From a bacterium (GTDB taxonomy: Bacteria; Zhuqueibacterota; QNDG01; DTFT01): a DNA stretch of 64,000 bases. The notes beneath the pieces were generated by a model. The model saw only the letters and a program-made list of their open reading frames with translations. It was not told the origin of the DNA and did no database searches. The translations under genes were made by a program, and so were the position numbers. The number at the start of each line of letters is the position of its first letter. The stretch's first letter is position 1. Shown piece after piece: positions 1-38,735 of the stretch. The stretch covers positions 8,567-72,566 of the forward strand of contig JAFGAX010000147.1 in assembly GCA_016933415.1 (NCBI GenBank), in the 5' to 3' direction.

Positions 1-899
1 CGTCGCGCCGGGAGATGGAACTGACCCTCAAGTCCGGCCGCAAGGCCTCCATCGGTTATACCGTCACCGACCGGGTGGACAACCAGAGGCGGAAGGTGGG
101 AACCATTGTCTCCTTCCGCGACATCACACTGATCAAGCAGATGCAGAACGAGGTCATCCGGATGGACCGGCTGGCTTCGCTCGGCGTGCTCGCTTCCGGC
201 ATCGCGCATGAAATCAAGAATCCGCTGGCCGGCATCAAGTCACTGGCCCAGGCCTGCGAAGAGGAATTCGAGGGGGAAGACTCGCGCCGGGAATATCTGG
301 CCCGCATCATCCGGCAGGTCAACCGCATGGATGACCTGCTGCGGACCTTTTTCGCGTATGCCAAGCCCAAGCCGCCGGACCGGAAGCCGGTTCCCCTCAG
401 CGACATCGTCCGAGAAGTCGGCCACCTGATGAGCCGAAAAATGGACAAGGCGGGCATCGGCTATTCCGTGGAAATAGCCGATGTCCTTCCGGCCGTGGTC
501 GTGGACGGACCGCAAATCCAGCAGGTTTTTCTGAACCTGATGCTCAATGCCGTGGACGCCATGCCCGAGGGCGGGACCCTGGCGATCCGGGCGGCCGCCG
601 CGGACCCGGATTTCCGGGGCCTGATGCGACGTCGCACGCCGGACATGCATCCGGATCCTTCGCTGAAAGGACCGTCCTACGTGGAAATTCGCATCCGCGA
701 TTCGGGCACTGGCATTCCGGAGGACAAGCTGGAAACCATTTTCGACCCGTTCTTCACCACCAAGCCCAGCGGCCTCGGCCTCGGGCTGTCCATCGTTTAC
801 CGCATCATCGCCGAACACCAGGGGGACATCCGAGTCAAGAGCCGTCCCGATCAGGGGACGGAATTCAGCATTTATTTACCCACGGGAGATCCTTCATGA
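1..899 (+). CDS. Sensor histidine kinase, C-terminal part (gene starts upstream of the window)
   Basis: H-box ASGIAHEIKNPL followed by a HATPase_c region (N-box LMLNAVDA, G-boxes DSGTGI and GLGLGLS); the reading frame is open to the window edge; the stop overlaps the next gene's ATG (ATGA at 896-899). Confidence 0.8.
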   Translation, partial: SRREMELTLKSGRKASIGYTVTDRVDNQRRKVGTIVSFRDITLIKQMQNEVIRMDRLASLGVLASGIAHEIKNPLAGIKSLAQACEEEFEGEDSRREYLARIIRQVNRMDDLLRTFFAYAKPKPPDRKPVPLSDIVREVGHLMSRKMDKAGIGYSVEIADVLPAVVVDGPQIQQVFLNLMLNAVDAMPEGGTLAIRAAAADPDFRGLMRRRTPDMHPDPSLKGPSYVEIRIRDSGTGIPEDKLETIFDPFFTTKPSGLGLGLSIVYRIIAEHQGDIRVKSRPDQGTEFSIYLPTGDPS

Positions 900-2254
900 A
901 TTCCGCCAACATCCTCGTCATCGAGGACAACGAAGACCTTTCATTCACCATATCCAAGGTTCTGCACAAGGAGGGTTTCAAGCTTTTCACGGCGAAGGCC
1001 GGGGAGGAAGGCCTGCTTCTGTTTCGGAAGGAAATCGTGGATCTGCTCCTGCTTGACCTGAAGCTTCCGAAAATGAACGGGCTGGAAGTGCTCTCGCGCG
1101 TCAAAGAGATGGACCCGGATCTCGCCGTCATCATGATGACGGCCTCCACCGACGTCAAGCCGGCCATCGAGGCCATGAAACGGGGCGCCACCGATTATCT
1201 CATGAAACCGTTCGAACTGGACGAGCTGAAACTGGTCGTCAAAAAGGCGCTGGAAATGCATCAGCTCAAAATTGAAGTGGCGCGTCTCCGGCGGGACCAT
1301 GTGAAGGCGAATCCCCACGACACGCTGTACGGCGAGAGTCCGAGAATCAAGGAGATCCGCAAGCTGATCCAGATCGTATCGGAAACTCCCCGGACTTCCG
1401 TTCTCATACAGGGCGAAAGCGGCACGGGCAAGGAACTCGTCTCGAACGCTATTCACACGGCCAGCAGCCGGGCCGGCAAACCCTACATCAAGATCAACTG
1501 CAGCGCCATTCCGGACAATCTTCTGGAAAGCGAGCTTTTCGGCCATGAAAAAGGCGCTTTCACGGACGCGAAACTCATGAAAAAGGGGCTTTTTGAACTC
1601 GCCAACGGGGGCACGATTTTTCTCGATGAAATATCCAGCATGAAGCTCGGGCTGCAGCCCAAAATTCTGCGCGTGCTCGAGACGCAGACGTTCCGCCGCA
1701 TCGGCGGCATCGGCGACATCAAGATCGACATCCGGGTCATCGCCGCCTCCAACACCGACCTCGGTGAACTCGTCAAACTCAAGGAATTCAGGGACGACCT
1801 GTATTACCGGCTGAAAGTCATGGAAATCGACCTGCCTCCGCTCCGGGATCGGAAGGAGGACATCATGCTTCTCGCCAAGCTCTTCCTTCAGGAATTCAAC
1901 AAGGAGTTCAACAAGCGGGTCCAGAAATTTCACGCGAAAACCGAGGAACTCCTTGTGGCCTACCATTGGCCGGGGAACGTCCGGGAACTGAAAAACGTCA
2001 TCGAACGGGCCGTCATTCTCACCCAGGACGACTCCCTTCACCCGGACCACCTTCCCATCGAACTCAAGGAAGAGGGGCGGTCCCCCATGCCGGAAAGAGC
2101 CGACATGGGCAGGATGTCGCTGGAGGACATGGAGAAAATGCACATCGACCAGGTCCTTCAATCCGTCAAAGGGAATAAGTCCCAGGCCGCGAAAATTTTG
2201 AACATTTCAAGATCGACACTTCGGGAAAAACTGAAGGCCTATCATATTTCCTGA
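896..2254 (+). CDS. Sigma-54-dependent two-component response regulator (NtrC family: receiver + AAA+ sigma-54 activator + Fis-type HTH)
   Basis: N-terminal receiver (DLLLLDLKLPKMNG), Walker A GESGTGKE, GAFTDA motif for sigma-54 contact, ESELFGHEKGAFT, C-terminal HTH; 452 aa. Confidence 0.9.
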   Translation: MNSANILVIEDNEDLSFTISKVLHKEGFKLFTAKAGEEGLLLFRKEIVDLLLLDLKLPKMNGLEVLSRVKEMDPDLAVIMMTASTDVKPAIEAMKRGATDYLMKPFELDELKLVVKKALEMHQLKIEVARLRRDHVKANPHDTLYGESPRIKEIRKLIQIVSETPRTSVLIQGESGTGKELVSNAIHTASSRAGKPYIKINCSAIPDNLLESELFGHEKGAFTDAKLMKKGLFELANGGTIFLDEISSMKLGLQPKILRVLETQTFRRIGGIGDIKIDIRVIAASNTDLGELVKLKEFRDDLYYRLKVMEIDLPPLRDRKEDIMLLAKLFLQEFNKEFNKRVQKFHAKTEELLVAYHWPGNVRELKNVIERAVILTQDDSLHPDHLPIELKEEGRSPMPERADMGRMSLEDMEKMHIDQVLQSVKGNKSQAAKILNISRSTLREKLKAYHIS

Positions 2255-2284: not shown

Positions 2285-2314
2285 GACGCCTGCACAAGCA
2301 GGCGTTGTCTTTTT
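2285..2314 (+). terminator. Rho-independent terminator after the NtrC-type regulator gene
   Basis: GACGCCTGC-acaa-GCAGGCGT hairpin followed by a T-rich tract gtcTTTTTg. Confidence 0.6.
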
Positions 2315-2377
2315 GCTAAGTTACTGTATATAAATAAGTAAGTTGATTCGCCGGGATTCCCGGGGAAATCTGTTTCC

Positions 2378-2392
2378 TGGTATATATTTTGC
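2378..2392 (+). promoter_or_regulatory. Candidate sigma-54 (-24/-12) promoter
   Basis: TGG-N10-TTGC (cTGGtatatattTTGCc) with the correct GG-N10-GC spacing, about 45 nt upstream of the receiver gene and immediately downstream of a sigma-54 activator gene. Confidence 0.45.
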
Positions 2393-2438: not shown

Positions 2439-2840
2439 TTGAAAACCTGGAAAAAAAGAGTTTTGATTGTGGACGATGAAGAGGATTTGACCTGGAGCAT
2501 CGTCCGGGGCCTTTCGAAAGACAAATCCGGCGTCGAAGTGCACTGCGCCAGTTCGGGTTCGCTTGCACTGGATCTGATTCATCGTCATTCCTATGACCTG
2601 CTGGTTACGGACGTGCGGATGCCCGGTCTGGACGGAAAGGGTCTCGTGCAACGGGCGCGATCCATGCATCCGGGCCTGAAAATCATCCTGATGACCGCCT
2701 TTCCGTCTCCGGATGTCCGGGAATTCGCGGAACGCTTCCGCATCTCGGAAACCGTGGAAAAGCCTTTTGAGATGGGGGAATTCCGGCGCCTGATCGGGAA
2801 TCACCTGGAGACCGAATCCGCGTCGTCCGGGGCCGCCTGA
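2439..2840 (+). CDS. Single-domain response regulator (CheY-like receiver)
   Basis: VLIVDDEE...LLVTDVRMPGLDG...KIILMTA receiver signature; 133 aa; TTG start preceded by AAGGAAACA. Confidence 0.8.
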   Translation: MKTWKKRVLIVDDEEDLTWSIVRGLSKDKSGVEVHCASSGSLALDLIHRHSYDLLVTDVRMPGLDGKGLVQRARSMHPGLKIILMTAFPSPDVREFAERFRISETVEKPFEMGEFRRLIGNHLETESASSGAA

Positions 2841-2865: not shown

Positions 2866-4470
2866 TTGGGGAGAAACGACTTCATGAAAGACGTTCATGC
2901 ATTATCCGCCGCTCCGGACATTCCGCCGGAACGGATGGATGTCTATCAGACATCCATCCGGGTTCTGGGGGCCGGAGGCGCCGGAAACAACACCATCGAC
3001 CGGCTCCTGAGGCTGGGCATCCGGAATGTGGACACGATCGCCCTCAATACGGATGCGCAGCAGCTCCTCGAGACGCATACCCAGCGGCGCATCCTGATCG
3101 GGAAGAACATCACGGCCGGGCTCGGATCCGGCGGTGACCCCCAGATCGGTGAGCGTTCGGCTGAAGAGAACCATGCCGCGATACGCTCCGCGATCGAAGG
3201 CGCCGATTTGCTGTTCATCACCGGCGGACTCGGCGGCGGCACCGCCACGGGCTCCATTCCGATCATCGGGCGTGTGGCCCGTGAGCAGGGGACCCTGACA
3301 ATGGCCATCGTCACCATGCCCTTCTCCGATGAAGGCATCGTGCGCTGGGAGAACGCCCAGATCGGCCTCGAAAAGATACGCAAGAATGTGGATACCGTGA
3401 TTGTCCTGCGCAATGACAAGCTGCACGACCTGTATCCGGACACCACACTGCTCGATGCTTTCCGCAAGGCGGACGAGATACTCATCCACAGCCTCATCGG
3501 GCTGTCCGACCTGGTGCAGAAACGGGGCCTGATCAATCTCGATTTCGCCGACATCCGGTCGGTTCTCACCGACGGTCCCAACGCCGTCATCGGGCTCGGC
3601 GAGAGCCGATCCGAGAACAGGGCCGAGGAGGCCGCGCGGCGCGCCTTCAGCCATCCCATGATGGACTCCGACATCACGGGCGCCCAGAGCGCCATGGTGC
3701 ACATCACCGGAGGGCCCGACCTGACACTGAAGGAATCCCGGCAGGTCATTCAGGCGCTTTCCCGCAAGCTCGACCCGGGGGCGAAAATCATCTGGGGCGT
3801 GACCATCGACAAATCGGTCAAGGGAACCCTGAAAGTCCTGCTCATCGTGACCGGTCTTGTGGAAAAAGAGGATGATTTTCCCAGGCGCCTCGATGAGCCG
3901 GAAGCCGTTTCCCGGCCTTCCCTCGAGACGGAAGGGACGATGCCCGGTCCGCTTCAGCCGATGCGCGACGACGGAAAGAGCATTTTCGACATCAAGGAAT
4001 CCATCATGGCCTCCGGCGAGGAGACCACCACGCTGACGAAACCCAGAAAGGCCGTCGCCCAGTCTTCGCAGATTTTTTACACGATATTCGAAGAGGAGGC
4101 GGCCGCGGACCTGAAGCGTTTCGACCGTGCGGTCCATCTGCTTCGGGAGACGCCGGACAGCCGCAAAGCCCTGCTGGACGCCCTTCAGTCCTGCAAAATG
4201 CTGTTCGCGTCCGCCCAGATGTTCGGATTCGACGAAACCTGCCAGCTGCTCGGCGCGGTGCAGGATATTCTGCAGAGCGTCCACGCGAAGGAAATCCAGA
4301 TGAATCCGAGAATCCTGGATTCCATCACGCTGGCGATCGAGATGGTCGTGGATCTGATGGAAAACCGCTGCGACGGACGCGGCGAAACCGGGTACATCGT
4401 GGACCGGCTTCGGGACCTCCGGAGCGAGCAGATGGAATCCGCGGCTTCCGCGGACGGGAACAAACCCTGA
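2866..4470 (+). CDS. FtsZ/tubulin-family GTPase paralogue with a C-terminal HPt-like extension
   Basis: GAGGAGNN, NTDAQQL, tubulin signature GGLGGGTATG, MPFSDEG, GLINLDFADIRSV and an FtsZ C-domain; then about 200 extra residues whose pattern (F.EEA...L..LL....PD....L......LKxSA.MFGFD....L.......D.L) matches an HPt/CheA-P1 four-helix bundle; no DIPAFLR-type C-terminal peptide. Confidence 0.85.
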   Translation: MGRNDFMKDVHALSAAPDIPPERMDVYQTSIRVLGAGGAGNNTIDRLLRLGIRNVDTIALNTDAQQLLETHTQRRILIGKNITAGLGSGGDPQIGERSAEENHAAIRSAIEGADLLFITGGLGGGTATGSIPIIGRVAREQGTLTMAIVTMPFSDEGIVRWENAQIGLEKIRKNVDTVIVLRNDKLHDLYPDTTLLDAFRKADEILIHSLIGLSDLVQKRGLINLDFADIRSVLTDGPNAVIGLGESRSENRAEEAARRAFSHPMMDSDITGAQSAMVHITGGPDLTLKESRQVIQALSRKLDPGAKIIWGVTIDKSVKGTLKVLLIVTGLVEKEDDFPRRLDEPEAVSRPSLETEGTMPGPLQPMRDDGKSIFDIKESIMASGEETTTLTKPRKAVAQSSQIFYTIFEEEAAADLKRFDRAVHLLRETPDSRKALLDALQSCKMLFASAQMFGFDETCQLLGAVQDILQSVHAKEIQMNPRILDSITLAIEMVVDLMENRCDGRGETGYIVDRLRDLRSEQMESAASADGNKP

Positions 4471-4488
4471 CCGGCGGATGCGCCGCCG

Positions 4489-4527
4489 CCCGTTTCCAGC
4501 CGGCCGGCAGGAAACGGGTTTTTTTTT
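4489..4527 (+). terminator. Rho-independent terminator
   Basis: CCCGTTTCC-12 nt loop-GGAAACGGG followed by nine T residues. Confidence 0.8.
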
Positions 4528-4542
4528 GACGGAGTCATCGGC

Positions 4543-6195
4543 ATGAACCCGCTTGTTCTGCAGTCCGAGAAGCCGGGCCGGTCCAATCAGGACCACGGGC
4601 CGGCGGCGCGCATCGCCGGAGCCGAACAGGTCCGCGCGGACCACGAAACGTATCTGACCGACGAGTCCCGGATGCCGGGCGGTTTTGCGGACGAACTGGT
4701 GTTCGCGGCCAGTGAAAAACAGGTATGCGAAGCGCTGGTCGGAGCCGGGCAAAGGCGCATCCCGGTGACGGTTTCCGGCGCCAGGACGGGCATTGTCGGC
4801 GGAGCGGTCCCGTTCGGCGGGATGCTGTTATCCATGGAATCCTTCAACGGATTCATCGGCGCATTCCGTCCGGACGGGGGAGGAGACTGGCGGATCCGGG
4901 TTGAACCCGGGCTGACGCTGGAAGCGCTGAATCGGATCATTGAAACCGGACTTCCGGCTGGAAACGGCGGACCGGGTTACGACCCGGACCGGTTTCCGGA
5001 AACCCCCCGGTTTCTGGCTGAATCGGCGTCCTGGTTCTATCCGCCTGATCCCACGGAGAAAACCGCGCAACTCGGCGGAACCGTGGCGACCAATGCTTCC
5101 GGATCACGTTCTCTGAAATACGGCCCCACTCGTGATTGGGTGACGGCACTCCGCGTGGCTCTGTCGGACGGGCGTGTGCTGGAACTCCGGAGAGGCGAAT
5201 GCATTTCAGCCGGAGGATCCGCACTGCACATCCGATTCGATGATCAGAAGCGCATCGTGCATCCGCCCAGGATCCGTCCGGTCCGCGTCAAGTCCAACGC
5301 CGGTTACTGGGGCGGAAGGCCCCTGGATTGGATCGATCTGTTCATCGGATCCGAGGGTACGCTCGGGGTCATCACGGAAATCGAACTCCGGCTGGCCCGA
5401 AAGCCGGAATCCGTGTTCGGCGGCCTCGTCTTTTTCCATACCGAGGAACAGGCCCTTTCCTTTGTCCGGCTTGCGGTTTCGCGGGACGGTCCGCGACCGT
5501 CCGTCCTCGAGTTTTTTGACGCGGCCGGCATCCGTTTCGCGGCCGGCAGTGAATCCGGGGCAGTACGGGCTTTTTCTTTTCCGTTCGATCCGGAATCCGC
5601 AGGTTGCGCCGTGTATTTCGAACAGGAATGCGAGACGGACCGCATGGAGGAGTCGCTGGACGGGTACGGCCGGATGCTGTCCGAGTGCGGCAGTTCTATG
5701 GACGAGGCATGGGGCGCGGTCGACGAAAGGGAATTGAGAAGAATCGCGGATTTCCGTCACGCGCTTCCTGAAGCGATCAATACCGTGATCGGCGGGCGCA
5801 AGCGGATTCATCCGGGGATTCACAAGGTTAGCACGGATTTTGCGGTTCCCGGGGAATCCTTTCACGACATGTTCCGGTTCTACCGGGAACACCTGGATCC
5901 GACTGGCATGGAATACGTCATTTTCGGGCATATCGGTGAAAATCATGTTCATCTGAACGTTCTTCCCGGATCGGAGCAGGAACTGACTGCAGCGATACAG
6001 GTCGTACGGGATCTCGCAACCGAAGCAGTTCGGCTGGGCGGCACGGTCAGCGCGGAGCATGGCATCGGAAAGCTTAAAAAACATCTACTTGCCCTCCAAT
6101 TCGGACCGGAGGACCTTGATTCCATGGTCCGTGTAAAAAAAGAACTGGATCCTGGCTGGATTCTCGGCAGAGGATCTCTTTTTGATATCCCCTAA
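4543..6195 (+). CDS. FAD-linked oxidase (GlcD / D-lactate dehydrogenase family)
   Basis: FAD-binding PCMH-type N-terminal domain (VSGARTGIVGGAVP), C-terminal VAO-type domain ending HGIGKLK; 550 aa. Confidence 0.8.
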   Translation: MNPLVLQSEKPGRSNQDHGPAARIAGAEQVRADHETYLTDESRMPGGFADELVFAASEKQVCEALVGAGQRRIPVTVSGARTGIVGGAVPFGGMLLSMESFNGFIGAFRPDGGGDWRIRVEPGLTLEALNRIIETGLPAGNGGPGYDPDRFPETPRFLAESASWFYPPDPTEKTAQLGGTVATNASGSRSLKYGPTRDWVTALRVALSDGRVLELRRGECISAGGSALHIRFDDQKRIVHPPRIRPVRVKSNAGYWGGRPLDWIDLFIGSEGTLGVITEIELRLARKPESVFGGLVFFHTEEQALSFVRLAVSRDGPRPSVLEFFDAAGIRFAAGSESGAVRAFSFPFDPESAGCAVYFEQECETDRMEESLDGYGRMLSECGSSMDEAWGAVDERELRRIADFRHALPEAINTVIGGRKRIHPGIHKVSTDFAVPGESFHDMFRFYREHLDPTGMEYVIFGHIGENHVHLNVLPGSEQELTAAIQVVRDLATEAVRLGGTVSAEHGIGKLKKHLLALQFGPEDLDSMVRVKKELDPGWILGRGSLFDIP

Positions 6196-9061: not shown

Positions 9062-9412
9062 ATGCCCAGATCAACCAACAACGTCGCTTCGCGGGCGCGG
9101 AGGAAGAAAATCCTCAAGGCGGCCCGCGGTTATTTCGGTGGAAAGAGCAAGCTCATCAAGACGGCGAAGGAAGCCGTCCAGCGCTCCATGCGCTACGCGT
9201 ATCGCGACCGCCGGACCCGGAAGCGGGAATACCGGACACTTTGGATCGCCCGCATCAACGCGGCTGTGCGTCCGTTCGGCCTGAATTATTCGGGTTTCAT
9301 CCGGAGCCTCGCGAAATCGAATATCGAGATCGACCGCAAACTGCTCGCCGATCTCGCGGTCACCGATCCGAAAGCCTTCGCCCGCATCGTCGAACAGGTG
9401 AAGAACGCCTGA
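9062..9412 (+). CDS. rplT: 50S ribosomal protein L20
   Basis: [26 protein letters not shown]...; 116 aa. Confidence 0.95.
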
Positions 9413-9428
9413 CCGGGGGCCCGATTCC

Positions 9429-10451
9429 ATGGCATCGGAAAACCTGACCGGGGAAATCCGGAAGATCGACGAGGCGTTTCAGTCCCGTCTGGCCGAGGCG
9501 AAAGACGCCCCGTCCCTGGAACGGATCCGCACGGATTTTCTCGGCCGCAAAGGACATATCGCGCGCCTGTTCGAGACGCTGGGTGAAGCGGATCCCGCCG
9601 TCCGCCGGGAGGCGGGCCGCCTTCTGAATGAGCTGAAAAATCGCGCCCAGTCCGCCGTTCTGGGGGAGGCCGCCCGCGTTTCGGCGAAAGAATCCGGGGA
9701 AGACCGCCCAGATCTGACGCTTCCGGGATACGCGCCGCCGGTCGGACGCCTGCACCCGCTGACGATCGTCATGCGCCGGGTCAAGTCCTGTTTTCAGAAG
9801 CTGGGCTTCGCGGTCGCCCAGGGGCCTGAAGTCGAGTCGGATTACTATAACTTCGAAGCGTTGAATATTCCGCCGGGTCATCCCGCCCGCGACATGCAGG
9901 ACACCCTGTACGTCAGCGATCGGGTGGTTCTTCGCACGCACACCTCGCCCGTTCAGATCCGGGTGATGGAGAATCAGAAACCGCCGGTCCGGATCATCGC
10001 GCCCGGACGGGTTTACCGCCGCGATACGCCGGATGCCTCGCATTCCCCGGTTTTCCACCAGGTGGAGGGGCTTTGCGTCGACGAGGGCGTGAGTTTCGCC
10101 GATCTGAAGGCGGTCATCCTGGCCTTCGCCCGTGAGATGTTCGGATCGGACATGACGATCCGTTTCCGGCCGAGCTTTTTCCCGTTCACGGAACCCAGCG
10201 CAGAGTACGACTTCACCTGCGTCATCTGCCGGGGAAAGGGCTGCCGGGTCTGTAAAAACACGGGATGGGTCGAGATCTCCGGAGCGGGCATGGTGAATCC
10301 CGAGGTGTTCCGCTTCGCGGGCATCGACAGCGAACGGTACACCGGATACGCCTTCGGCATGGGCGTTGAACGCCTCACCATGCTTTTGTACGAGGTTCAG
10401 GATATCCGGGCATTTTATGAAAACGACCTCCGTTTTCTCGGGCAGTTCTAG
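9429..10451 (+). CDS. pheS: Phenylalanyl-tRNA synthetase alpha subunit
   Basis: Class II core motifs (FRPSFFPFTEPS, GMGVERL); 340 aa. Confidence 0.95.
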   Translation: MASENLTGEIRKIDEAFQSRLAEAKDAPSLERIRTDFLGRKGHIARLFETLGEADPAVRREAGRLLNELKNRAQSAVLGEAARVSAKESGEDRPDLTLPGYAPPVGRLHPLTIVMRRVKSCFQKLGFAVAQGPEVESDYYNFEALNIPPGHPARDMQDTLYVSDRVVLRTHTSPVQIRVMENQKPPVRIIAPGRVYRRDTPDASHSPVFHQVEGLCVDEGVSFADLKAVILAFAREMFGSDMTIRFRPSFFPFTEPSAEYDFTCVICRGKGCRVCKNTGWVEISGAGMVNPEVFRFAGIDSERYTGYAFGMGVERLTMLLYEVQDIRAFYENDLRFLGQF

Positions 10452-10460
10452 GGCGACGCC

Positions 10461-12839
10461 ATGAAGATACCGCTTGCCTGGCTGCAGGACTGGATTCCCG
10501 TTCCCCTTGACGCGCATGAAACCGCACGGCGGCTCACGCTGGCCGGCCTGGAAGTCGAATCCATTGACATCGTCGGCGGACGCTTCCGGGGCGTGGTGAT
10601 CGGACGGATCCTGTCCGTCGGGCCGGTTCCCGGAGCCGACAAACTCCGCCTGTGCCGCGTGGACGCCGGTTCCGGCGAAATTCCCGTGGTCTGCGGCGCC
10701 CCGAACGTGCGCGACGGGATTCTCGTGCCCGTTGCCCTGGAAGGCGCCGAACTGCCCGGCAACATGAAAATCCGCCGGACGGTCATCCGGAACGCGGAAT
10801 CGGCCGGCATGATCTGTTCCGCCAGGGAACTGGGCCTCGGCGACGACCATTCCGGCATACTCGTGCTCGACGATCCGTCGCTCCGGCCCGGTGATGCCTT
10901 CACGGACCGCGAGGGAAACGATTTTATTTTCGACATCAACGTCACTCCCAACCGGCCGGATTGCCTGTGTGTCCGGGGCATCGCCCGGGAAGTGGCTCTG
11001 TTGCACGGTTGCGCGCTCCGGTCTCCGGAAACCGTAAAACCCGTGGATGCGGCCGGCGGCCCGGTCGACATCCGCATCGAGGACCCGGACGGCTGCAGCC
11101 GTTACACGGCCCGCCGGTTGAAGGACATCCGCATCGGCCCTTCCCCCGAGTGGATCCGGAAACGGATCGAGGCGGCCGGCATGCACGCCATCAACAATAT
11201 TGTCGACATCACCAATTACGTCATGCTCGAAACGGGTCAGCCGCTTCACGCGTTTGACGCGGATCTCCTGGACGGGGGCCGAATCATCGTGCGCCGCGCC
11301 GGAGAAATCCGCCAGTTCACGACCCTGGACGGCCAGGAACGAAGGCTCTCCGCCGAGGATCTCCTGATCTGCGACGGCGCCCGTCCGGTCGCGCTGGCCG
11401 GCATCATGGGCGGGCGGAATTCCGAAGTATCCGAGGGAACCCGCCGGATCCTCCTGGAAAGCGCCCATTTCGATCCGATGACCATCCGGCGCACCGTCAA
11501 GCGGATCGGTATCTCCTCCGAAGCGAGTATCCGGATGGAGAAGGGCGTCGATCCTTCCGGAACGCGGGACGCGCTGGAGCGGGCGATCGCGATAATGGTC
11601 GAGCTGAGCGGCGGTTGTCCGGATTCGGGCGTGACCGACGTCGTGGCGCGTCCGATCCGTCCGGTTCGGATCTCGCTCCGCCCGCAGCGCATCCGCAGAG
11701 TGCTTGGCGCCGAGATCCCGCATGCGGACATCCTCCGCATACTCTCGGGGCTCGGCATGACCGTCGAAGGAACGGATCCGGTGGAGGTCACGGTGCCGAC
11801 CCGCCGGCCGGATGTGACGGGGGAGATTGACCTGATCGAGGAAGTGGTGCGTCATTTCGGGTACGACCGCATCGAACCCAGCGCCTCCACGACCGGCCCG
11901 ACCGCCGTCCATTCGAACCGGGAGGATGAATTCATCGAACGGCTCCGGGATATTCTGTCGGGCATGGGATTCACGGAAGTTTTCAACAACAGCATGGTCG
12001 ACCGTCAATCGACGGATCTGTTCTTCGCGCCGGTTCCCGCCGTTCCGGTGCGCAACCCGCTGAGCCCGGAAACCGCTTTTCTGCGCACCGCTCTGATGCC
12101 CGGTTTGATGGAAAGCGTCCGATGGAATCAGAACCGTTCCGTCTTCGATCTGCGTCTGTTCGAGATCGGACGCGTGTTCGAGCACCGGGGGGAGGGACTT
12201 CCGGAGGAACGGGTCCGCGTCGCGGGCGTCATCAGCGAATCGGCCCGCCAGAAGGGGTACTGGAAATCGCGCTCGCCGCGGCCGGACTGGTATGCCGTCA
12301 AGGGAACGCTCGAGGCCCTGGCGGAGGCGCTGCACCTCAAAGAAACGGCATTCCGGCCGTCTCCCGGACGGGGATGGGTTCCGGGGACTGCAGCAGTTTT
12401 TGAAGCGGGGGGGAAGCGGATCGGGTCGTTCGGAGAGGCGGATCCCTCCGTGCGCGCCGCATGCGATGTATCGGAAAGGGTTTTCGGCTTCGAGTTGGAT
12501 GGTTCCGCGTTGCTGGAATGCCTGCCGCAGTCACCGGTCGTCCGCCCGGTTCCCCGGTATCCCGCCGTGCGGCGGGATCTCGCACTGGTCGTCGACGCCG
12601 GCGTGCCGGTGGGTTCCATTCAGCAAACCCTTCTGCTGAACGGAGGCGGACTGCTCGTGTCCGCCGATCTTTTCGATCTCTACCAGGGGAAGCAGATCCC
12701 CGCCGGGCGGAAGAGCCTCGCTTTCACACTCGCTTTTCTGTCTCCGGAACGTACGCTCACGGACGCCGACGTCGACCCGTTGATGAACGGTATCATCCGT
12801 TGCCTCGAGTCGGTTCACGGCGCATCCCTGCGGTCTTGA
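10461..12839 (+). CDS. pheT: Phenylalanyl-tRNA synthetase beta subunit
   Basis: tRNA-binding N-terminal domain, B3/B4, B5 and FDX-ACB domains; 792 aa. Confidence 0.95.
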   Translation: MKIPLAWLQDWIPVPLDAHETARRLTLAGLEVESIDIVGGRFRGVVIGRILSVGPVPGADKLRLCRVDAGSGEIPVVCGAPNVRDGILVPVALEGAELPGNMKIRRTVIRNAESAGMICSARELGLGDDHSGILVLDDPSLRPGDAFTDREGNDFIFDINVTPNRPDCLCVRGIAREVALLHGCALRSPETVKPVDAAGGPVDIRIEDPDGCSRYTARRLKDIRIGPSPEWIRKRIEAAGMHAINNIVDITNYVMLETGQPLHAFDADLLDGGRIIVRRAGEIRQFTTLDGQERRLSAEDLLICDGARPVALAGIMGGRNSEVSEGTRRILLESAHFDPMTIRRTVKRIGISSEASIRMEKGVDPSGTRDALERAIAIMVELSGGCPDSGVTDVVARPIRPVRISLRPQRIRRVLGAEIPHADILRILSGLGMTVEGTDPVEVTVPTRRPDVTGEIDLIEEVVRHFGYDRIEPSASTTGPTAVHSNREDEFIERLRDILSGMGFTEVFNNSMVDRQSTDLFFAPVPAVPVRNPLSPETAFLRTALMPGLMESVRWNQNRSVFDLRLFEIGRVFEHRGEGLPEERVRVAGVISESARQKGYWKSRSPRPDWYAVKGTLEALAEALHLKETAFRPSPGRGWVPGTAAVFEAGGKRIGSFGEADPSVRAACDVSERVFGFELDGSALLECLPQSPVVRPVPRYPAVRRDLALVVDAGVPVGSIQQTLLLNGGGLLVSADLFDLYQGKQIPAGRKSLAFTLAFLSPERTLTDADVDPLMNGIIRCLESVHGASLRS

Positions 12840-12857: not shown

Positions 12858-13139
12858 ATGGATCTTCAGTTCTTCGACATGCTGGAAGAGAAGGTGAACC
12901 GGATGGTTCAACAGCTCAGTCAGCTCAAGACGGAGAACCGCGAACTCCGGATGCGGAACCAGGAATTGCAGGCCGTTTTGGAGGAAAAGGAACGCGCCGT
13001 GTACACCCTGCGGACCGAGCTGGATCAGACCCGGGCCGTCCAGGGGGAAATCGACAATTACCGCAAGAGCCAGGACCGGATACGGTCCAAGGTGGAAACA
13101 CTTCTTGAGAAACTGAAGGATTTCGAGAATATCCCCTGA
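12858..13139 (+). CDS. zapB: Cell division protein ZapB-like coiled-coil protein
   Basis: 93-aa all-coiled-coil protein (LEEKVNRMVQQLSQLKTENRELR...), immediately upstream of zapA. Confidence 0.7.
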   Translation: MDLQFFDMLEEKVNRMVQQLSQLKTENRELRMRNQELQAVLEEKERAVYTLRTELDQTRAVQGEIDNYRKSQDRIRSKVETLLEKLKDFENIP

Positions 13140-13211: not shown

Positions 13212-13511
13212 ATGGAATCTGACAAAAATGTTCTGAAGGTCAGAATCTACGGCGCCGAATACTTGATCCGAGGACAGGCGGACGTCAATTACATGCAGTC
13301 TGTCGCTGAATACGTGAATGACAAGATGCTTGAAATCGATCAGACGATCCGGACCGATTCCTCGCTCAAAGTGGCCATACTCGCCACGCTGAACATCACC
13401 GACGAGCTGTTCCGCGAGCGGGCGGAATCGGAAGCCATTCGGAACGAACTCGAGAATAAAATAAGGGAGCTGAATCTTCTGATCGACCGGCAGTTGTCTA
13501 CCGACGTGTGA
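13212..13511 (+). CDS. zapA: Z-ring-associated protein ZapA
   Basis: 99 aa; conserved ZapA N-terminal beta domain (VKVRIYGAEYLIRGQADVNYMQSVAEYVNDKM) followed by a coiled coil. Confidence 0.75.
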   Translation: MESDKNVLKVRIYGAEYLIRGQADVNYMQSVAEYVNDKMLEIDQTIRTDSSLKVAILATLNITDELFRERAESEAIRNELENKIRELNLLIDRQLSTDV

Positions 13512-20379: not shown

Positions 20380-20408
20380 AATTTAGCCAATTGACGTAGG
20401 AAAGTCAA
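20380..20408 (-). promoter_or_regulatory. Sigma-70 promoter of tRNA-Arg
   Basis: On the minus strand: TTGACT - 17 nt - TAAATT, about 17 nt upstream of the mature tRNA 5' end; same architecture as the tRNA-Val promoter. Confidence 0.5.
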
Positions 20409-20426
20409 TAGCCAATAAATGCAGCG

Positions 20427-22373
20427 CTAATGAACGCTTAAAGCCGCGACTGTCATGCCTCCTGGGGCCGCTGGCGGTGTCAACTCGAGTTCAACGTAGT
20501 CTCCTGATCGGATTTCATCTGAAACCGTCGACCCCGCATCCATCAGAGCGTCGGAAGGCAGACGGTAACGGGCTGTTCCCTCGGCAACGGATCCGTCCAG
20601 GGCCAGCGCTCCAGTGAAGACATTTCCCGGTACGGCACCGGTCAGAACGATCGTTGAAACGGTGCCATCCGCTTCGTCCATGTACAGGGGGCCTGGATTT
20701 TTGACCACGGTTTCGGATGCGGTCAATTCAACGCTTAAAACCTTTTTCAGAACCCGGAAAGACTGGATCGTGGCGTAGAGTTCCTTTTCTGTGATCGGGA
20801 TCGGGTCCGGATCGATTTGGGGGAAATAAAGCGGTTCATACTCATGGATGCCGATATCCGGATTCTGACCGGTGTACGGATAAGACACGCCGTCTCCGGC
20901 TTTCCAGGAAATGTTCCGGTCCACGGTGATCCGGTTGTTCGTGTAATCCGCAGACAGGATCCTCAGGTTCTTTTCCGCGCCGATCTGGATGATATCGCCC
21001 TGTCCGGGAATGCCGAAACCGTCCGTCAGACACCGTGCGGATTCCAACGGAACAACGGTTCCGGAGCCGGCGGAACCGATCCGGGTCAGAACGGTTCCCT
21101 GATCGATGCATCCCGATTCTTTTTTCAGCTTGAAATTGTACCGTGCGGCGTCCATGTCGATCCACTCGAGGCCGTGAAACAGTGTTTTTTGCCAGTCCAG
21201 GGGAGCGGATACGAAACCCGGGTCTCCCGTCAGGGTCGTGGGCGCGAACCTTCGTTTCCATTCCGCGAGGGACATGAATCCGAGCCAGTAGATTTCGGTT
21301 GCATTTCCGAGTTCTCCCCAGACCCAGTTGTTTTCGGCTTTGATTCCGGTCTGATTGTCCGCATCCTCGAGGATGATCGGGCAGATTTGGTCGTACCGTG
21401 CCGTTCGTTTGCGGCCGTATATGATGTTGTTCTTCAGAACCGCGTTGTGAACCCACTGATCCGTCAGGTACAGTTCCGCCATGTTCTGACAGCGGTTGGT
21501 GTCGGCCATGTTCCGGAAGAGGATGTTGTGGATCATGGCCAGGTTCCCGGTATTGTTGTTCAGAACGCCGGAGCCTCCGTTGTTGTAGAAGATATTCCGT
21601 GTCATCAGATGTAGGCCGCCGGTTCCGGCGAGGTCCCAGGTGAATCCGTTTCCGTCCCAGTAGGATCCGTTTCGTTTCTGCCAGTTCGCGTACATGACGT
21701 TCCGCCGGACGATAGAGAACCACTGAATGCCGGAATCCAGCAATTCGCGGTTGTTGATGGAGGCACCGTCCCCCCACCCGCTGTCCCCGTCCGCCTTCCA
21801 TCCGTTGTGGTGCAGAACGCAGTCCTGTATGATGATGTGATTCGATCCGACTGTATTCAGACCCGCATTTCCATTATCGTACACGATCAGATCATCCAGA
21901 AACACAAAATCCGCGTAATAGACTGAAACCCCGTCCTGCTGATACCCGTGAAAGGACAGATTCCGTATGTGAAAATGGGTTTTGGTGAACGGCGATCCAA
22001 GCTGTCCCTGAATGATGAATCCGTATTGTCCGGTTCCCGTCACGTCCGGACGGGTTCCCGGTTCACCCGTCACCGTGATCCACTTTCCGGGAGCGCCGGA
22101 ATTTGAAAATGGGATGTCGCTTTCAACATAGGTGCCGGGCAGGACGATCAGGCTGTCTCCGGCGGCCAGAATCGAAGCCGCTTTTCGAATGGTTTTCCAT
22201 GGAGTGGAACGATTCGTTGCCTGCGCATTGGTGCGGCTGTCGTTTCCTGCGGGCGAAACAAAATAGGTGGAGGCTTTCAGCGATGCCGTCCAGAGGATCA
22301 AGAACAGAATCGGAAAAACTTTCCCGCAACCGTTTCCGACCGCCACGAATCGGGGCAAATATTTCCTTTTCAT
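20427..22373 (-). CDS. Secreted right-handed parallel beta-helix (pectin-lyase-fold) protein; putative polysaccharide lyase, hydrolase or C5-epimerase
   Basis: N-terminal signal peptide (KVFPILFLILWTASLKA), many N/G/D-rich beta-helix rungs (NNGGSGVLNNNTGN, HNILFRN, NAVLKNNIIYG); 648 aa; visibly lower GC than its neighbours. Confidence 0.75.
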   Translation of the reverse strand: MKRKYLPRFVAVGNGCGKVFPILFLILWTASLKASTYFVSPAGNDSRTNAQATNRSTPWKTIRKAASILAAGDSLIVLPGTYVESDIPFSNSGAPGKWITVTGEPGTRPDVTGTGQYGFIIQGQLGSPFTKTHFHIRNLSFHGYQQDGVSVYYADFVFLDDLIVYDNGNAGLNTVGSNHIIIQDCVLHHNGWKADGDSGWGDGASINNRELLDSGIQWFSIVRRNVMYANWQKRNGSYWDGNGFTWDLAGTGGLHLMTRNIFYNNGGSGVLNNNTGNLAMIHNILFRNMADTNRCQNMAELYLTDQWVHNAVLKNNIIYGRKRTARYDQICPIILEDADNQTGIKAENNWVWGELGNATEIYWLGFMSLAEWKRRFAPTTLTGDPGFVSAPLDWQKTLFHGLEWIDMDAARYNFKLKKESGCIDQGTVLTRIGSAGSGTVVPLESARCLTDGFGIPGQGDIIQIGAEKNLRILSADYTNNRITVDRNISWKAGDGVSYPYTGQNPDIGIHEYEPLYFPQIDPDPIPITEKELYATIQSFRVLKKVLSVELTASETVVKNPGPLYMDEADGTVSTIVLTGAVPGNVFTGALALDGSVAEGTARYRLPSDALMDAGSTVSDEIRSGDYVELELTPPAAPGGMTVAALSVH

Positions 22374-22464
22374 GGCAAATACCCCTTTCGATAACCCCTT
22401 GTTTTTATGAAGATAAACTAATTACTTTTTCTTCACAATCCTATATATAGGCAAAGCAGGGGCC

Positions 22465-22503
22465 AATAAAAATCCCCGTGAAAGATTCCACTGTTTCACG
22501 GGG
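22465..22503 (-). terminator. Rho-independent terminator at the end of the exopolysaccharide operon
   Basis: Perfect 10-bp inverted repeat CCCCGTGAAA-10 nt-TTTCACGGGG, followed on the minus strand by AUUUUUAUU. Confidence 0.6.
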
Positions 22504-22526
22504 TTGATACGGTCTGTGATGACTTG

Positions 22527-23465
22527 TCAGACTGAGTTCCTGCTCCATTCGTTCAGAATGCGTTCATACGGCGCAACCCACAATCGTGTTTTCAGGGAAC
22601 CCAGAAAGCGGATGAAATCCCTGAACCGACCGAGCCGTCCGATGTCCGATGGGTCGAAATAGAGATTGACGTACGATCCCGTATCCATCGCCATTCCGAT
22701 GATTTTTTCGATGCGGCCGAAAAAGGCGTTTTCCTGCTCCGCAGGAACCGGTCCATCCGTTCTCGGAAACCGGTTGTAGGTGTCAAAGCAGGTATTCGGA
22801 TATGCCGGGTCGAATGAAAGTGGAAATTCCCATATCCCGTCCGACTCGCGGTACGGCATTCCATATCCCGGACACTGGATGGAAATCCTGGAGCTGGAGT
22901 ACCGGTAGCCGATTCCGGCCAGGACGGAGTATACGTCCCTTGTGTGGGAATCCCCGAAATGAGGCGTTCGGAAACCCGACGGCCGGTAATTCAGCCTGAC
23001 GCGGATGATCCGGTCCGCCATTTCGATTTCCTCTCGTCTGGCGCCGGGCGTGATTTCGTTGAAACGTTCGTCCGGATGGAAGCGGCTGTTGCTGGGATGC
23101 GTATAGGTGTGGTTGACCAGTTCGTGGCCGCGACGGATCAATTCGAGATGACTGTCCGGATCCAGTTCCACCCATTTGGCGATGCAGGCGAACGAGGCGC
23201 TCAGCCCCTCCCCTGCCAGCGCGTCCAGCAGTTCCGGCATCGCCCGGTAATCGGCCTCATGGTCGCAGTCGAAAGACAGGGTTAAACACGCGCTCTTTCC
23301 GGGCCAGAGAGCGGGCTTCCCACGGTTGTGAGAATAAAAAGCCGATGCGAATCCATCGGACCAGACGCGTCCGATGATCCGGCGGAGTGCTTTCGCGGCG
23401 AGCCCCGGCCTGTCTTTCCGGAAAGCGGAGGCCGCGAGATCGGCCAGCGCCAATCGGGTATTCAA
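22527..23465 (-). CDS. Polysaccharide deacetylase (NodB/CE4 family)
   Basis: CE4 motifs LTLSFDCDHE and HELVNHTYTHP; 312 aa. Confidence 0.75.
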   Translation of the reverse strand: MNTRLALADLAASAFRKDRPGLAAKALRRIIGRVWSDGFASAFYSHNRGKPALWPGKSACLTLSFDCDHEADYRAMPELLDALAGEGLSASFACIAKWVELDPDSHLELIRRGHELVNHTYTHPSNSRFHPDERFNEITPGARREEIEMADRIIRVRLNYRPSGFRTPHFGDSHTRDVYSVLAGIGYRYSSSRISIQCPGYGMPYRESDGIWEFPLSFDPAYPNTCFDTYNRFPRTDGPVPAEQENAFFGRIEKIIGMAMDTGSYVNLYFDPSDIGRLGRFRDFIRFLGSLKTRLWVAPYERILNEWSRNSV

Positions 23466-27158: not shown

Positions 27159-27159
27159 T

Positions 27160-33690: not shown

Positions 33691-33693
33691 CGG

Positions 33694-38525: not shown

Positions 38526-38735
38526 GGTGGCATCCGTTTGTTAATGAAACATCACAGATGTGAACGACAGGTAATAGAATGCAAGTTCCATGCCACCCAA
38601 ATGTACTAATATTCAGGCGTAACAGACATCCTCGATCGTGATCGGGAGGGAAAAACCGGATGGGGGGAGGAAAAAAATGCCTGTTCCTGTACCGATTCAA
38701 GCCTCCAATCCGCTCAGTCGTTTGAAATGAACCGG

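Follow-up and report, generated by a model that had tools for sequence, protein, structure and literature searches.

The P1 domains of CheA, as known from R. sphaeroides (CheA3 P1 with CheY6, 3KYI), T. maritima (1TQG and 2LD6) and Salmonella (1I5N), have a five-helix HPt fold in which a histidine accepts the phosphoryl group. AHP6 of Arabidopsis is a free-standing eukaryotic pseudo-HPt protein that inhibits the phosphorelay and is thought to bind its partners without phosphotransfer. To our knowledge, two-component signalling reaches FtsZ only indirectly, either through transcription or through dedicated inhibitors. The systems that position FtsZ include MinCDE, MipZ and PomXYZ, and PatA, a PATAN-REC regulator of Anabaena, has been linked to division proteins (PMC7380572). 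For archaeal FtsZ a GID motif has been described (PMC8178401), and it has been stated that no notable transfer of ftsZ between archaea and bacteria is detectable (PMC9871819).

In the stretch of 64,000 nucleotides analyzed here (the window), which comes from a bacterium of the uncultured group KSB1, a gene was found whose product joins an FtsZ core to a homologue of CheA P1. Besides the five-helix fold and the profile homology, the added domain keeps the helix-B motif xSAxMFGF of CheA P1 and a conserved glutamate which aligns with the catalytic Glu67 of T. maritima (Glu70 in E. coli). It differs from CheA P1 in having a lysine for the phospho-accepting histidine, in not conserving the CheA lysine three residues after that histidine, and in being tethered to FtsZ and not to a kinase, with no P2-P5 domains nearby. 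ChpA of the Pseudomonas Pil-Chp system also has the HPt fold with a non-histidine residue at this site, but its domains lie within a CheA-type kinase, whereas the fusion has no kinase and its site residue is unconserved. AHP6 is likewise an HPt fold that has lost its histidine, although it is free-standing and eukaryotic whereas the pseudo-HPt described here is attached to a bacterial cytoskeletal GTPase. The described protein closest to the FtsZ core is archaeal FtsZ1 of Methanocaldococcus jannaschii (PDB 1FSZ and 1W58), with which it shares intact GTPase and T7 motifs. Unlike FtsZ1, the fusion occurs in a bacterial context, carries a 200-residue extension including the P1-like domain, and has no terminal GID peptide, or at best a degenerate and internal one. 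No description of such a fusion was found in the searchable literature on FtsZ-HPt combinations, on FtsZ of KSB1 or Calditrichaeota, or on PATAN together with FtsZ.

Gene model and domains of the fusion

The mechanical open reading frame (2866..4470, plus strand) encodes 534 residues from a TTG codon. Judged from the sequence, the ATG at position 2884 is the likely true start, since it yields the 528 residues seen in relatives and is preceded by a GGGGAGA ribosome-binding site 9 nt upstream. The reading frame and all the motifs previously quoted from it (GGLGGGTATG, NTDAQQL, GLINLDFADIRSV and DSRKALLDALQSCKMLFASAQMFGFDETCQLLGAVQDIL) were recovered. A long antisense frame overlapping the gene (2902-4752, minus strand) was dismissed as a high-GC artefact.

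The protein was confirmed to consist of a complete FtsZ core, a disordered linker of about 60 residues and a five-helix homologue of CheA P1 / HPt (Table 1). The extension of about 200 residues that had been said to follow the core is thus present and includes a folded P1-like domain. Within the core, the Pfam Tubulin model matches with E 2e-42 (145.9 bits against a cutoff of 33) and FtsZ_C with E 1e-29 (102.7 bits against 27), and the TIGR00065 ftsZ model gives 366.5 bits against a cutoff of 295.2. The G-box GAGGAGNN, the tubulin signature GGLGGGTATGS and the T7 loop NLDFAD were all observed to be intact. The GTPase and T7 catalytic columns are invariant among 100 relatives and the core is modelled by AF2 with pLDDT >85. 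The description of this region as a textbook FtsZ core holds for its completeness and for the family cutoffs passed but not for its affinity, as it groups with archaeal and not with bacterial FtsZ. We regard a polymerisation-competent FtsZ as the best explanation, with both polymerisation and a division role remaining inferences from the sequence.

The linker is marked by AF2 pLDDT <50 at residues 333-371 and 377-391 (528-residue numbering), interrupted by a predicted helix at 371-376, and is poorly conserved apart from the motif SIFDIKESI. This motif is kept at >=80% in the close group, and its F and I are almost invariant over all 100 sequences. It may serve to bind a partner or be what remains of the archaeal C-terminal peptide of the GID type, the latter equivalence being speculative; archaeal FtsZ1 tails among the control sequences end in GIEFIE, EIDFLK or DIDFVG. 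The fusion itself ends in ...SEQMESAASADGNKP, a tail that is unconserved among relatives. The C-terminal peptide that binds FtsA and ZipA had been reported missing, and indeed neither a bacterial PAFLR-type nor an archaeal GID-type anchor peptide was found at the extreme C-terminus of the fusion, with both types being visible in the control tails.

Table 1. Features of the fusion gene and of its upstream neighbourhood in the window.
Feature	Position	Strand	Details and basis
PAS histidine kinase, C-terminal part (HisKA + HATPase_c), cut by the window start	15..899	+	Pfam
NtrC-type sigma-54 activator (REC + AAA+ Sigma54_activat + HTH_8)	896..2254	+	Pfam
Terminator-like hairpin and T-run after the activator gene	2285..2316	+	9-pair stem (6 G-C), 4-nt loop, then GTCTTTTTGC; consensus match
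Sigma-54 (-24/-12) promoter TGGTATATATTTTGC	2378..2392	+	about 47 nt upstream of the receiver start
Single-domain CheY-like receiver	2439..2840	+	133 aa, TTG start; Pfam Response_reg E 5e-20
FtsZ / pseudo-HPt fusion gene	2884..4470	+	528 aa from the likely start, ATG 2884
FtsZ core: GTPase domain (residues 31-190) and FtsZ_C domain (residues 240-331)	2956..3858	+	Pfam, TIGR00065
Disordered linker	3880..4056	+	about 59 aa; AF2 pLDDT
Linker motif SIFDIKESI	3979..4005	+	short predicted helix; conservation and AF2
CheA-P1-type five-helix HPt-like domain (pseudo-HPt)	4060..4452	+	profile, AF2, Foldseek
Lys444 codon (AAA), position of the phospho-accepting His	4195-4197	+	HMMER alignments; codon checked

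The HPt-like domain and its missing histidine

The similarity of the extension to HPt and CheA P1 domains, first proposed from the letters alone, is weak in Pfam by itself, where the Hpt model reaches only 13.3 bits (E 0.1) on the window sequence against a cutoff of 24.6, and is well above chance by profile and by predicted structure. The NCBIfam model of the CheA N-terminus matches the fusion with E 7e-6 and a phmmer search of the PDB retrieves T. maritima CheA P1 with E 2e-4. A profile built from the family finds the CheA P1 structures 2ld6 (E 1.5e-12), 1tqg (6e-12) and 1i5n (4e-9), and the Pfam Hpt model (PF01627) matches the C-terminal domains of 31/37 relatives at E<=0.01.

The four-helix bundle that had been expected is predicted as a P1 fold, that is, with a fifth helix in addition (AF2, pLDDT 89.7). 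The top Foldseek matches in the PDB are all CheA P1 domains, with a probability of 1.0 and TM scores of 0.65-0.74 normalised to the query. They comprise 3kyi (TM 0.74 by query and 0.82 by target, rmsd 2.3 A), 1i5n, 2ld6 and 1tqg. The closest structural match (3kyi/3kyj) comes from crystals of a P1 domain bound to a CheY.

The lysine proposed to replace the histidine was verified, as Lys444 aligns with His45 of CheA; in the HMMER alignment with T. maritima CheA P1, ALHTLKG stands against SCKMLFA. No histidine was observed in this column in any of 119 relatives (K 97, S 8, R 4, T 3, others 7), and the residues found across the family are K, S, R, T, I, A, Q, E and V, with Y in neighbouring proteins. 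Because the residue differs between subtypes (K, S, T or A, and Y in the neighbours), a mechanism in which the lysine reads a phospho-aspartate cannot be general. A histidine located three residues further on in many relatives (CKLLHAS) was considered as a substitute and rejected, as this position is occupied by L, Q, Y, F or H and is unconserved.

Of the roles put forward in the sequence-only reading, that of phosphoryl acceptor is effectively excluded, since histidine is missing from every relative, whereas those of docking module or decoy remain plausible. With no histidine at the helix-B site, the domain should be filed as a pseudo-HPt and not as a functional HPt.

Genomic context

The gene had been described as lying outside a division or cell-wall cluster, and we observed two-component genes as its neighbours and no dcw genes in the window. 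The kinase at the window start (HisKA, E 1e-14; HATPase_c, E 8e-26) is the second of two kinases in a conserved module, and orthologous full-length PAS kinases were found upstream in four loci. The activator that follows (Sigma54_activat, E 4e-65; Response_reg, E 1e-27; HTH_8, E 2e-16) has the loop GAFTDA at residue 220, a variant of GAFTGA, and is present upstream of the receiver/FtsZ pair in every locus with enough sequence. The terminator-like hairpin behind it carries little weight, a similar number of such sites being expected by chance in the region.

The promoter pattern TGGYAY-N5-TTGC occurs twice in the window against 0.13 matches expected. All 20 loci examined have a matching sigma-54 element between the activator and receiver genes, and in two of them it takes the perfect form TGGCAC-N5-TTGC. 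The activator most likely acts on this promoter, which is an inference without transcript data.

The receiver protein that was said to adjoin the fusion was found, with a complete phospho-acceptor pocket formed by D12, D13, D58, T86 and K108. These residues are kept in 23/23, 24/24, 24/24, 24/24 and 23/24 cases, respectively, among 24 distinct orthologues. The gap between the receiver stop and ATG 2884 is 43 nt in the window, and a receiver lies directly upstream of the fusion in every locus with upstream sequence (>20 loci, FtsZ identity 53-96%). Downstream of the fusion gene, thrS-infC-rpmI-rplT-pheST and, at a distance of ~9 kb, ZapA and a ZapB-like gene were found.

Distribution and subtypes

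The same architecture of FtsZ with a P1-like domain was found to be conserved in >100 relatives. They form a large family in metagenome genomes of KSB1/Calditrichaeota, named 'candidate division KSB1' or 'Calditrichaeota' at NCBI and annotated only as "FtsZ". Three subtypes (A, B and C) were distinguished, and the P1-like domain is constant in the whole FtsZ clade. Subtype A, to which the window gene belongs, has the receiver gene adjacent without exception. All subtype B clusters contain one or two receivers, and in the fuller cluster FtsZ has beside it the genes for a ParA/MinD/MipZ-like ATPase and for a REC-PATAN (DUF4388) regulator, usually together with one for a lytic transglycosylase. 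The REC of this regulator is orthologous to the window receiver (42-45% identity), and the flanking subtype B proteins 'big' and 'dn' carry P1-like domains without the histidine. With two receivers and up to three further genes for His-less P1-like domains, the larger cluster suggests a network of REC/pseudo-HPt interactions. The same domain occurs in the long-linker subtype C (P0502 and P0456) with no receiver or kinase gene nearby, so that its role may exceed receiver docking. Among the places listed, the subtype B protein P0503 is found in GCA_034505675.1 and the subtype C protein P0502 in GCA_034505235.1. Further assemblies with the fusion are GCA_008501765.1 (a Calditrichaeota MAG that includes a 1.0-Mb contig), GCA_015490205.1, GCA_054024455.1, GCA_022616415.1 and the MAG of NQT26725.1.

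The ParA/MinD-family ATPase of subtype B recalls the known FtsZ positioning systems, and the regulator next to the subtype B FtsZ combines PATAN and REC as PatA does, although in the order REC-PATAN and not PATAN-REC. Unlike the ParA/PATAN systems, the window version has lost the ATPase and REC-PATAN genes, and no functional data are available for the cluster.

Proposed function

Our main reading, to which we assign a probability of roughly 0.45, is that the fusion is a signal-induced FtsZ whose dead HPt docks receivers and does not accept phosphoryl groups. It is inferred, and no binding data exist. The PAS histidine kinases would control the NtrC-type activator, and this in turn would switch on the sigma-54 promoter, from which the receiver and the fusion are presumed to be co-transcribed; a signal would thus first induce the receiver/FtsZ pair. 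The kinases would also phosphorylate the receiver, which would then dock on the dead HPt through the surface by which P1 domains normally meet CheY. As no phosphotransfer would be possible, the receiver would stay bound and might alter the assembly, bundling or placement of FtsZ. A signal-controlled operon holding a receiver and the fusion suggests that two-component signalling is connected to the cytoskeleton in a way not described before. The affinity of isolated P1 for CheY is generally weak in chemotaxis systems, which counts against docking, and the approximately 24 receiver/HPt pairs are too few for a covariation analysis.

The P1-like domain may instead be a lineage-specific structural or partner-binding module of the FtsZ clade that is unrelated to receivers. 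Its function might be to bind a membrane anchor, to bind the other pseudo-HPt proteins or to bundle filaments, and the connection to two-component signalling would then be purely transcriptional. We consider this unlikely, though it has to be taken seriously. Its presence in all three subtypes, including subtype C loci without two-component genes, and the free variation of the former histidine site between subtypes agree with such a module, but a receiver adjoins every subtype A gene and one or two occur in all subtype B clusters. The His-less domains of 'big' and 'dn' would fit a homotypic or scaffold network, yet we know of no self-association of monomeric P1 domains, and the only partners known to be established for P1 and HPt folds are receiver domains and kinase catalytic domains.

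Origin of the FtsZ core and role in division

The best PDB match of the core is M. jannaschii FtsZ1 with 336 bits, whereas S. aureus FtsZ, the highest-scoring match that is clearly bacterial, reaches 269 bits. A neighbour-joining tree separates 44 bacterial sequences from 36 archaeal sequences plus the fusions with a bootstrap of 100/100, the fusions being joined to the FtsZ1-like archaeal subset in 69/100 replicates; the reference consists of 80 ordinary FtsZ loci among the matches listed. A scan of a genome collection with universal FtsZ motifs gave no fusion among the 80 loci listed, all of which belong to unrelated genomes. At diagnostic columns the ratio of archaeal-like to bacterial-like residues is 7:4 in the close group and 10:2 in the distant group. 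On this sequence evidence, with neighbour joining as the only tree method, the core is placed with archaeal, FtsZ1-like sequences in the split between archaeal and bacterial FtsZ. This contradicts the statement that no notable interdomain transfer of ftsZ can be detected (PMC9871819). The identity of subtype A to any ordinary FtsZ is 42-46%, and subtypes B and C reach 54% to archaeal FtsZ; by sequence, no branch of the fusion clade has diverged further than subtype A. The window gene does not lie in an archaeal genome, the context genes being bacterial (the sigma-54 activator, RNase Y, ZapA and thrS-infC-rpmI-rplT-pheST).

The fusion had been called a paralogue, a status that is not demonstrated. 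A second ftsZ was looked for in the window and none was found, and no second, bacterial-type ftsZ has been shown in any fusion-carrying genome. In a search with a canonical FtsZ of the FCB group (Eisenbacteria), the best 120 matches were all close Eisenbacteria relatives.

On a broader reading, which we hold to be doubtful, KSB1/Calditrichaeota would have no bacterial-type FtsZ, and an archaeal-type FtsZ, either passed between the domains long ago or kept since a deep split, would build their machinery for division or envelope remodelling. The captured CheA P1 would then serve as a general cytoskeleton adaptor, and the window gene would be a specialised copy under sigma-54 and two-component control.

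That the fusion is itself the housekeeping division FtsZ, with the extension as a lineage-specific tail and no separate bacterial-type FtsZ, appears improbable to us. The search, which did not extend to whole genomes, revealed no bacterial-type ftsZ of KSB1, and the FtsZs named 'candidate division KSB1' are all of the fusion type among the matches listed. The intact GTPase and T7 motifs and the ZapA and ZapB-like genes about 9 kb downstream are also in keeping with a division role. However, a gene that is essential and constitutive would not usually be placed behind a conserved sigma-54 promoter in a signal-transduction operon, and the extension is more than a linker, being folded and conserved as a domain. 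Subtype A is moreover the most divergent branch (42-46% versus 54% for B and C), and the slower-evolving subtype C genes in KSB1 MAGs are better housekeeping candidates.

Other alternatives

By analogy with the Spt and Tpt domains of ChpA, the pseudo-HPt could still be a phosphotransfer site that uses a residue other than histidine. ChpA has been described with Hpt, Spt and Tpt domains (PMC10896506), the nearest non-FtsZ relatives of the P1-like domain are multi-HPt ChpA-like proteins, and Ser or Thr is found at the site in some members of subtypes B and C. We nevertheless find this very hard to sustain, as the site is Lys in the window type, the family keeps no one residue that would be chemically competent, no CheA-type kinase domain occurs in any locus, and the local kinases are of the HisKA type, which need no HPt. 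An assembly or gene-calling artefact, whether two genes joined through a lost stop codon or a chimeric contig, has nothing in its favour beyond the general possibility in metagenome assemblies and is already refuted, since the unbroken architecture recurs in >100 protein clusters whose samples and sources are independent (NCBI, JGI, ENA and Logan) and in 25 independently fetched metagenome loci.

Implications

The organisms are uncultured, yet the questions raised by the fusion are directly testable with recombinant proteins. With FtsZ physically joined to a phosphotransfer fold, and with a receiver, kinases and a sigma-54 activator conserved alongside, signalling would be linked directly, at the protein level, to a filament of the tubulin family. 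Among prokaryotes, the fusion would also offer a clear example of a 'dead' HPt that has been put to new use in interactions. Finally, the archaeal-type core leads one to ask how division is organised in a whole candidate phylum.

FtsZ core and its archaeal affinity

The open reading frame at 2866-4470 (+) was confirmed to be real in the window, with ATG 2884 as the likely start on the basis of the 528-aa length of relatives and a GGGGAGA ribosome-binding site. The G-box, tubulin signature and T7 loop (NLDFAD) were all found in its protein, in columns that are invariant across 100 relatives, and the curated FtsZ model TIGR00065 was passed with 366.5 bits against a cutoff of 295.2. Judged on sequence, the core is FtsZ by every criterion; the FtsZ features that the protein fails are the C-terminal anchor peptide and the dcw location. 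Its C-terminus carries neither a bacterial PAFLR-type nor an archaeal GID-type peptide, and neither division/cell-wall genes nor a second ftsZ were found within the 64-kb window. The sequence-only reading had described an FtsZ gene outside a division/cell-wall cluster and without the conserved end peptide; both points held, and all motifs that it quoted are present. Two antisense ORFs, 2902-4752 (-; 616 aa) over the FtsZ gene and 9360-12335 (-; 991 aa) over pheS/pheT, were rejected as genes, both being Arg/Gly/Pro-rich and typical artefacts of about 60% GC.

Among the matches listed, the FtsZs of species genomes closest to the fusion core are archaeal (at most 55% identity, against 38-45% for bacterial ones). 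Mean identities within the same matches are 54% to archaeal and 46-47% to bacterial FtsZ for subtypes B and C, and 46% and 42% for subtype A (the window type), which is the most divergent. By sequence, the core matches M. jannaschii FtsZ1 best among solved structures (336 bits), the best clearly bacterial one being that of S. aureus (269 bits), and diagnostic columns also lean archaeal. With references taken from the matches listed, neighbour-joining separated 44 bacterial FtsZs from 36 archaeal ones plus all fusion cores (bootstrap 100/100), and 69/100 replicates united the fusions with the FtsZ1-like subset. These tree results rest on neighbour-joining alone, with the FCB group poorly represented on the bacterial side (one Eisenbacteria and one Gemmatimonadota sequence). 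The fusion core has an archaeal affinity in these sequence comparisons although its genomic context is clearly bacterial. A recent survey detected no notable archaea-bacteria transfer of ftsZ and does not mention an Hpt fusion of FtsZ (PMC9871819). Two archaeal MAG contigs (Methanobacteriota and Thermoplasmata) were also observed to carry two FtsZ genes each, in tandem (Table).

C-terminal extension

The extension had been likened to HPt and CheA P1, the HPt-type phosphotransfer domain of CheA, with a Lys replacing the phospho-accepting His and a helical bundle expected. Pfam Hpt against the window sequence alone remains below cutoff (E 0.1, 13.3 bits), but the other approaches agree. The extension matches the N-terminus of the NCBIfam CheA model (E 7e-6) and, by phmmer, T. 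maritima CheA P1 (E 2e-4), while a profile of the C-terminal domains of 37 relatives, 31 of which match Pfam Hpt individually, recovers solved CheA P1 structures (2ld6, E 1.5e-12; 1tqg, 6e-12; 1i5n, 4e-9). AlphaFold2 predicts five helices (pLDDT about 90) in the full-length model and the isolated domain alike. The top Foldseek matches in the PDB are exclusively CheA P1 domains, the best being R. sphaeroides CheA3 P1 crystallised with CheY6 (TM 0.74/0.82, rmsd 2.3 A).

Lys444 (SCKMLFASAQMFGF) aligns on the phospho-accepting His (ALHTLKGMAGTMGF) in all alignments, in which a conserved Glu three turns later matches the catalytic Glu of CheA. The 119 full-length relatives have Lys (97), Ser (8), Arg (4), Thr (3) or other residues (7) at this column and never His, so the domain cannot be a conventional phospho-acceptor, which effectively excludes the acceptor role that had been proposed. 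As far as alignments and predicted structure can tell, the extension is a true CheA P1 homologue without the defining His, i.e. a pseudo-HPt. The earlier observation is thereby confirmed and its structural interpretation supported. A search of a library of 1.8 billion representative proteins placed the domain closest, outside FtsZ, to long ChpA-like proteins with multiple HPt domains; the non-His Xpt domains of ChpA and the plant pseudo-HPt proteins are its closest analogies.

Locus organization

The gene order in the window is PAS kinase, NtrC-type sigma-54 activator, CheY-like receiver, FtsZ fusion, an optional FAD-linked oxidase, thrS-infC-rpmI-rplT-pheS-pheT, zapB-like, zapA and rny; relatives with more upstream sequence additionally have a second PAS kinase, a REC-GGDEF protein and gcvP. 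The receiver lies immediately 5' of the FtsZ gene in all loci with upstream sequence (more than 20), and 24 orthologues conserve the five residues of its phospho-acceptor pocket. The oxidase gene is present at six orthologous loci of relatives (L004, L093, L096, L101, L107, L113) and absent from four (L001, L005, L089, L094), and is therefore a variable insertion outside the module. The ZapB-like/zapA arrangement after pheT is kept in relatives; these bacterial Z-ring accessory genes coexist with an archaeal-type FtsZ, the sole FtsZ visible.

A -24/-12 element was present in 20/20 activator-receiver intergenic regions examined, some with perfect consensus, and the pattern TGGYAY-N5-TTGC has two matches in the 64-kb window, where 0.13 would be expected. 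Together with the GAFTDA loop of the activator and a terminator-like hairpin after its gene, this makes the receiver/FtsZ pair look like a sigma-54 operon, which we infer to be induced via the neighbouring sensory module. The only other exact match, at 38581-38595 (-) (TGGCATGGAACTTGC), is overlapped by an Arg-rich, apparently spurious ORF (38365-39033, -), and no obvious gene was identified downstream of it. Elsewhere in the window, a surface-polysaccharide cluster occupies about 20400-36000.

Coordinates of annotated features (L-handles denote loci of relatives)
Feature	Locus	Coordinates	Strand	Remarks
Pfam Tubulin	window protein	residues 31-190		E 2e-42
Pfam FtsZ_C	window protein	residues 240-331		E 1e-29
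-24/-12 element	window	2378-2392		activator-receiver intergenic region; TGGTATATATTTTGC
FAD-linked oxidase (FAD_binding_4 + FAD-oxidase_C)	window	4543-6195	+	between FtsZ fusion and thrS
ZapB-like gene	window	12858-13136		directly after pheT, ~9 kb downstream of fusion
zapA	window	13212-13502		directly after pheT with ZapB-like gene, ~9 kb downstream of fusion
Beta-helix protein	window	20427-22373
Polysaccharide deacetylase	window	22527-23465
Group-1 glycosyltransferase	window	23462-24358
Wzy_C O-antigen ligase-like	window	27160-28722
Wzz/GNVR/AAA_31 tyrosine-kinase-type chain-length regulator	window	33694-36012
Genes flanking FtsZ, subtype B	L008	7271-9895 and 11843-13039
Genes flanking FtsZ, subtype B	L091	8093-9973 and 11761-12963
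Genes flanking FtsZ, subtype B	L090	5645-6937 and 8519-9163
Genes flanking FtsZ, subtype B	L007	7646-9982 and 11806-12606
Regulator after sigma-54 activator, subtype B	L008	4493-5170
Regulator after sigma-54 activator, subtype B	L091	6135-6803
Regulator after sigma-54 activator, subtype B	L120	5509-6225
Subtype C fusion	L117 (GCA_034505235.1)	10001-12100		near rpsB-tsf-pyrH-frr
Subtype C fusion	L118 (GCA_022616415.1)	10001-12568
FtsZ tandem pair	L027	411-1340/2047-2967
FtsZ tandem pair	L028	6019-6936/7294-8220

Family and subtypes

The FtsZ-plus-extension architecture, which was sought elsewhere, recurs in more than 100 protein clusters of subtype A (505-540 aa, 50-96% identity full-length) and in two further subtypes. 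Members are publicly annotated as plain FtsZ (NCBI label "cell division protein FtsZ") under the source names "candidate division KSB1 bacterium", "Calditrichaeota bacterium" or only "bacterium", and no description of an FtsZ-HPt fusion was found in the searched literature.

Subtype B (570-610 aa, about 40-45% identity) comes from KSB1 and Calditrichaeota MAGs and has the upstream module of the window. Between activator and FtsZ it carries a REC-PATAN (DUF4388) regulator, whose REC is an orthologue of the window receiver (42-45% identity), a ParA/MinD/MipZ-like ATPase, usually a second small receiver and an SLT lytic transglycosylase, and an unannotated protein of 430-874 aa; another of 214-400 aa follows FtsZ. 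With the FtsZ-domain profile, both unannotated proteins show one to three P1-like domains each (whole-protein E 1e-9 to 1e-15), and His is absent here too, being replaced by Tyr in CYSLKG/CYSLKI or by K/A/Q. By their profile matches, these flanking proteins are a multi-pseudo-HPt family with no described function. For this larger cluster, analogies can be drawn with FtsZ positioning by ParA-family systems and with PatA, a PATAN regulator that contacts the divisome of Anabaena (PMC7380572), although cyanobacterial PatA has PATAN followed by REC whereas the subtype B regulator has the reverse order.

Subtype C (600-920 aa) joins a core like that of the window type to a His-less P1-like domain through a very long Pro/Ala-rich linker, of 200-400 residues in L117 and L118. 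Many subtype B and C FtsZs end, after the P1-like domain, in a conserved amphipathic peptide (DAVKYVNNLLKG, EVMEYLDDLF, SVNDAVKYVNNLLKG, VGEVVNYVKNLL, ATEVMEYLDDLF; relatives' proteins P0107, P0112, P0116, P0105, P0502, P0456 and P0448, e.g. L007 gene 10001-11740) that resembles membrane-targeting helices. This peptide is missing from the window protein, which has a conserved linker motif, SIFDIKESI, instead.

Possible role of the pseudo-HPt domain

To our knowledge, the established partners of P1/HPt folds are solely receiver domains and kinase catalytic domains. In subtypes A and B the FtsZ fusion always has receivers as neighbours, and the loci contain no CheA-type kinase, which favours a receiver-docking model. 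Expression of the receiver/FtsZ pair would be gated by sigma-54, and the phosphorylatable receiver would bind the pseudo-HPt domain of FtsZ and, once docked, modulate FtsZ assembly or placement; we give this tentative model a probability of roughly 0.45. The Lys that occupies the position of the lost His could conceivably contact the phospho-aspartate of the receiver, but this is speculative and is weakened by the variation of this residue across subtypes.

The main rival, which we consider rather unlikely, sees in the domain an adaptor that works without receivers and is shared by the whole clade. The subtype C loci without two-component genes would suggest this: the L117 and L118 fusion genes lie away from any two-component or dcw genes. 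Fusions of this type are possibly the housekeeping FtsZs of KSB1. That the window fusion itself is a housekeeping FtsZ appears less probable still, given its sigma-54 promoter and the fast evolution of the subtype A branch, but it cannot be excluded since a second ftsZ was looked for in the 64-kb window and not in whole genomes. Genuine phosphotransfer through a residue other than His is very improbable, and the recurrence of the fusion architecture rules out an assembly artefact.

The gene system around the fusion is conserved and previously undescribed. Beyond the fusion itself, which the sequence-only reading had recognized, the analysis adds the archaeal affinity of the core, the putative sigma-54 operon and a network of predicted pseudo-HPt proteins. 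The window type resembles a pared-down form of an ancient ten-gene system centred on receivers and dead HPt modules.
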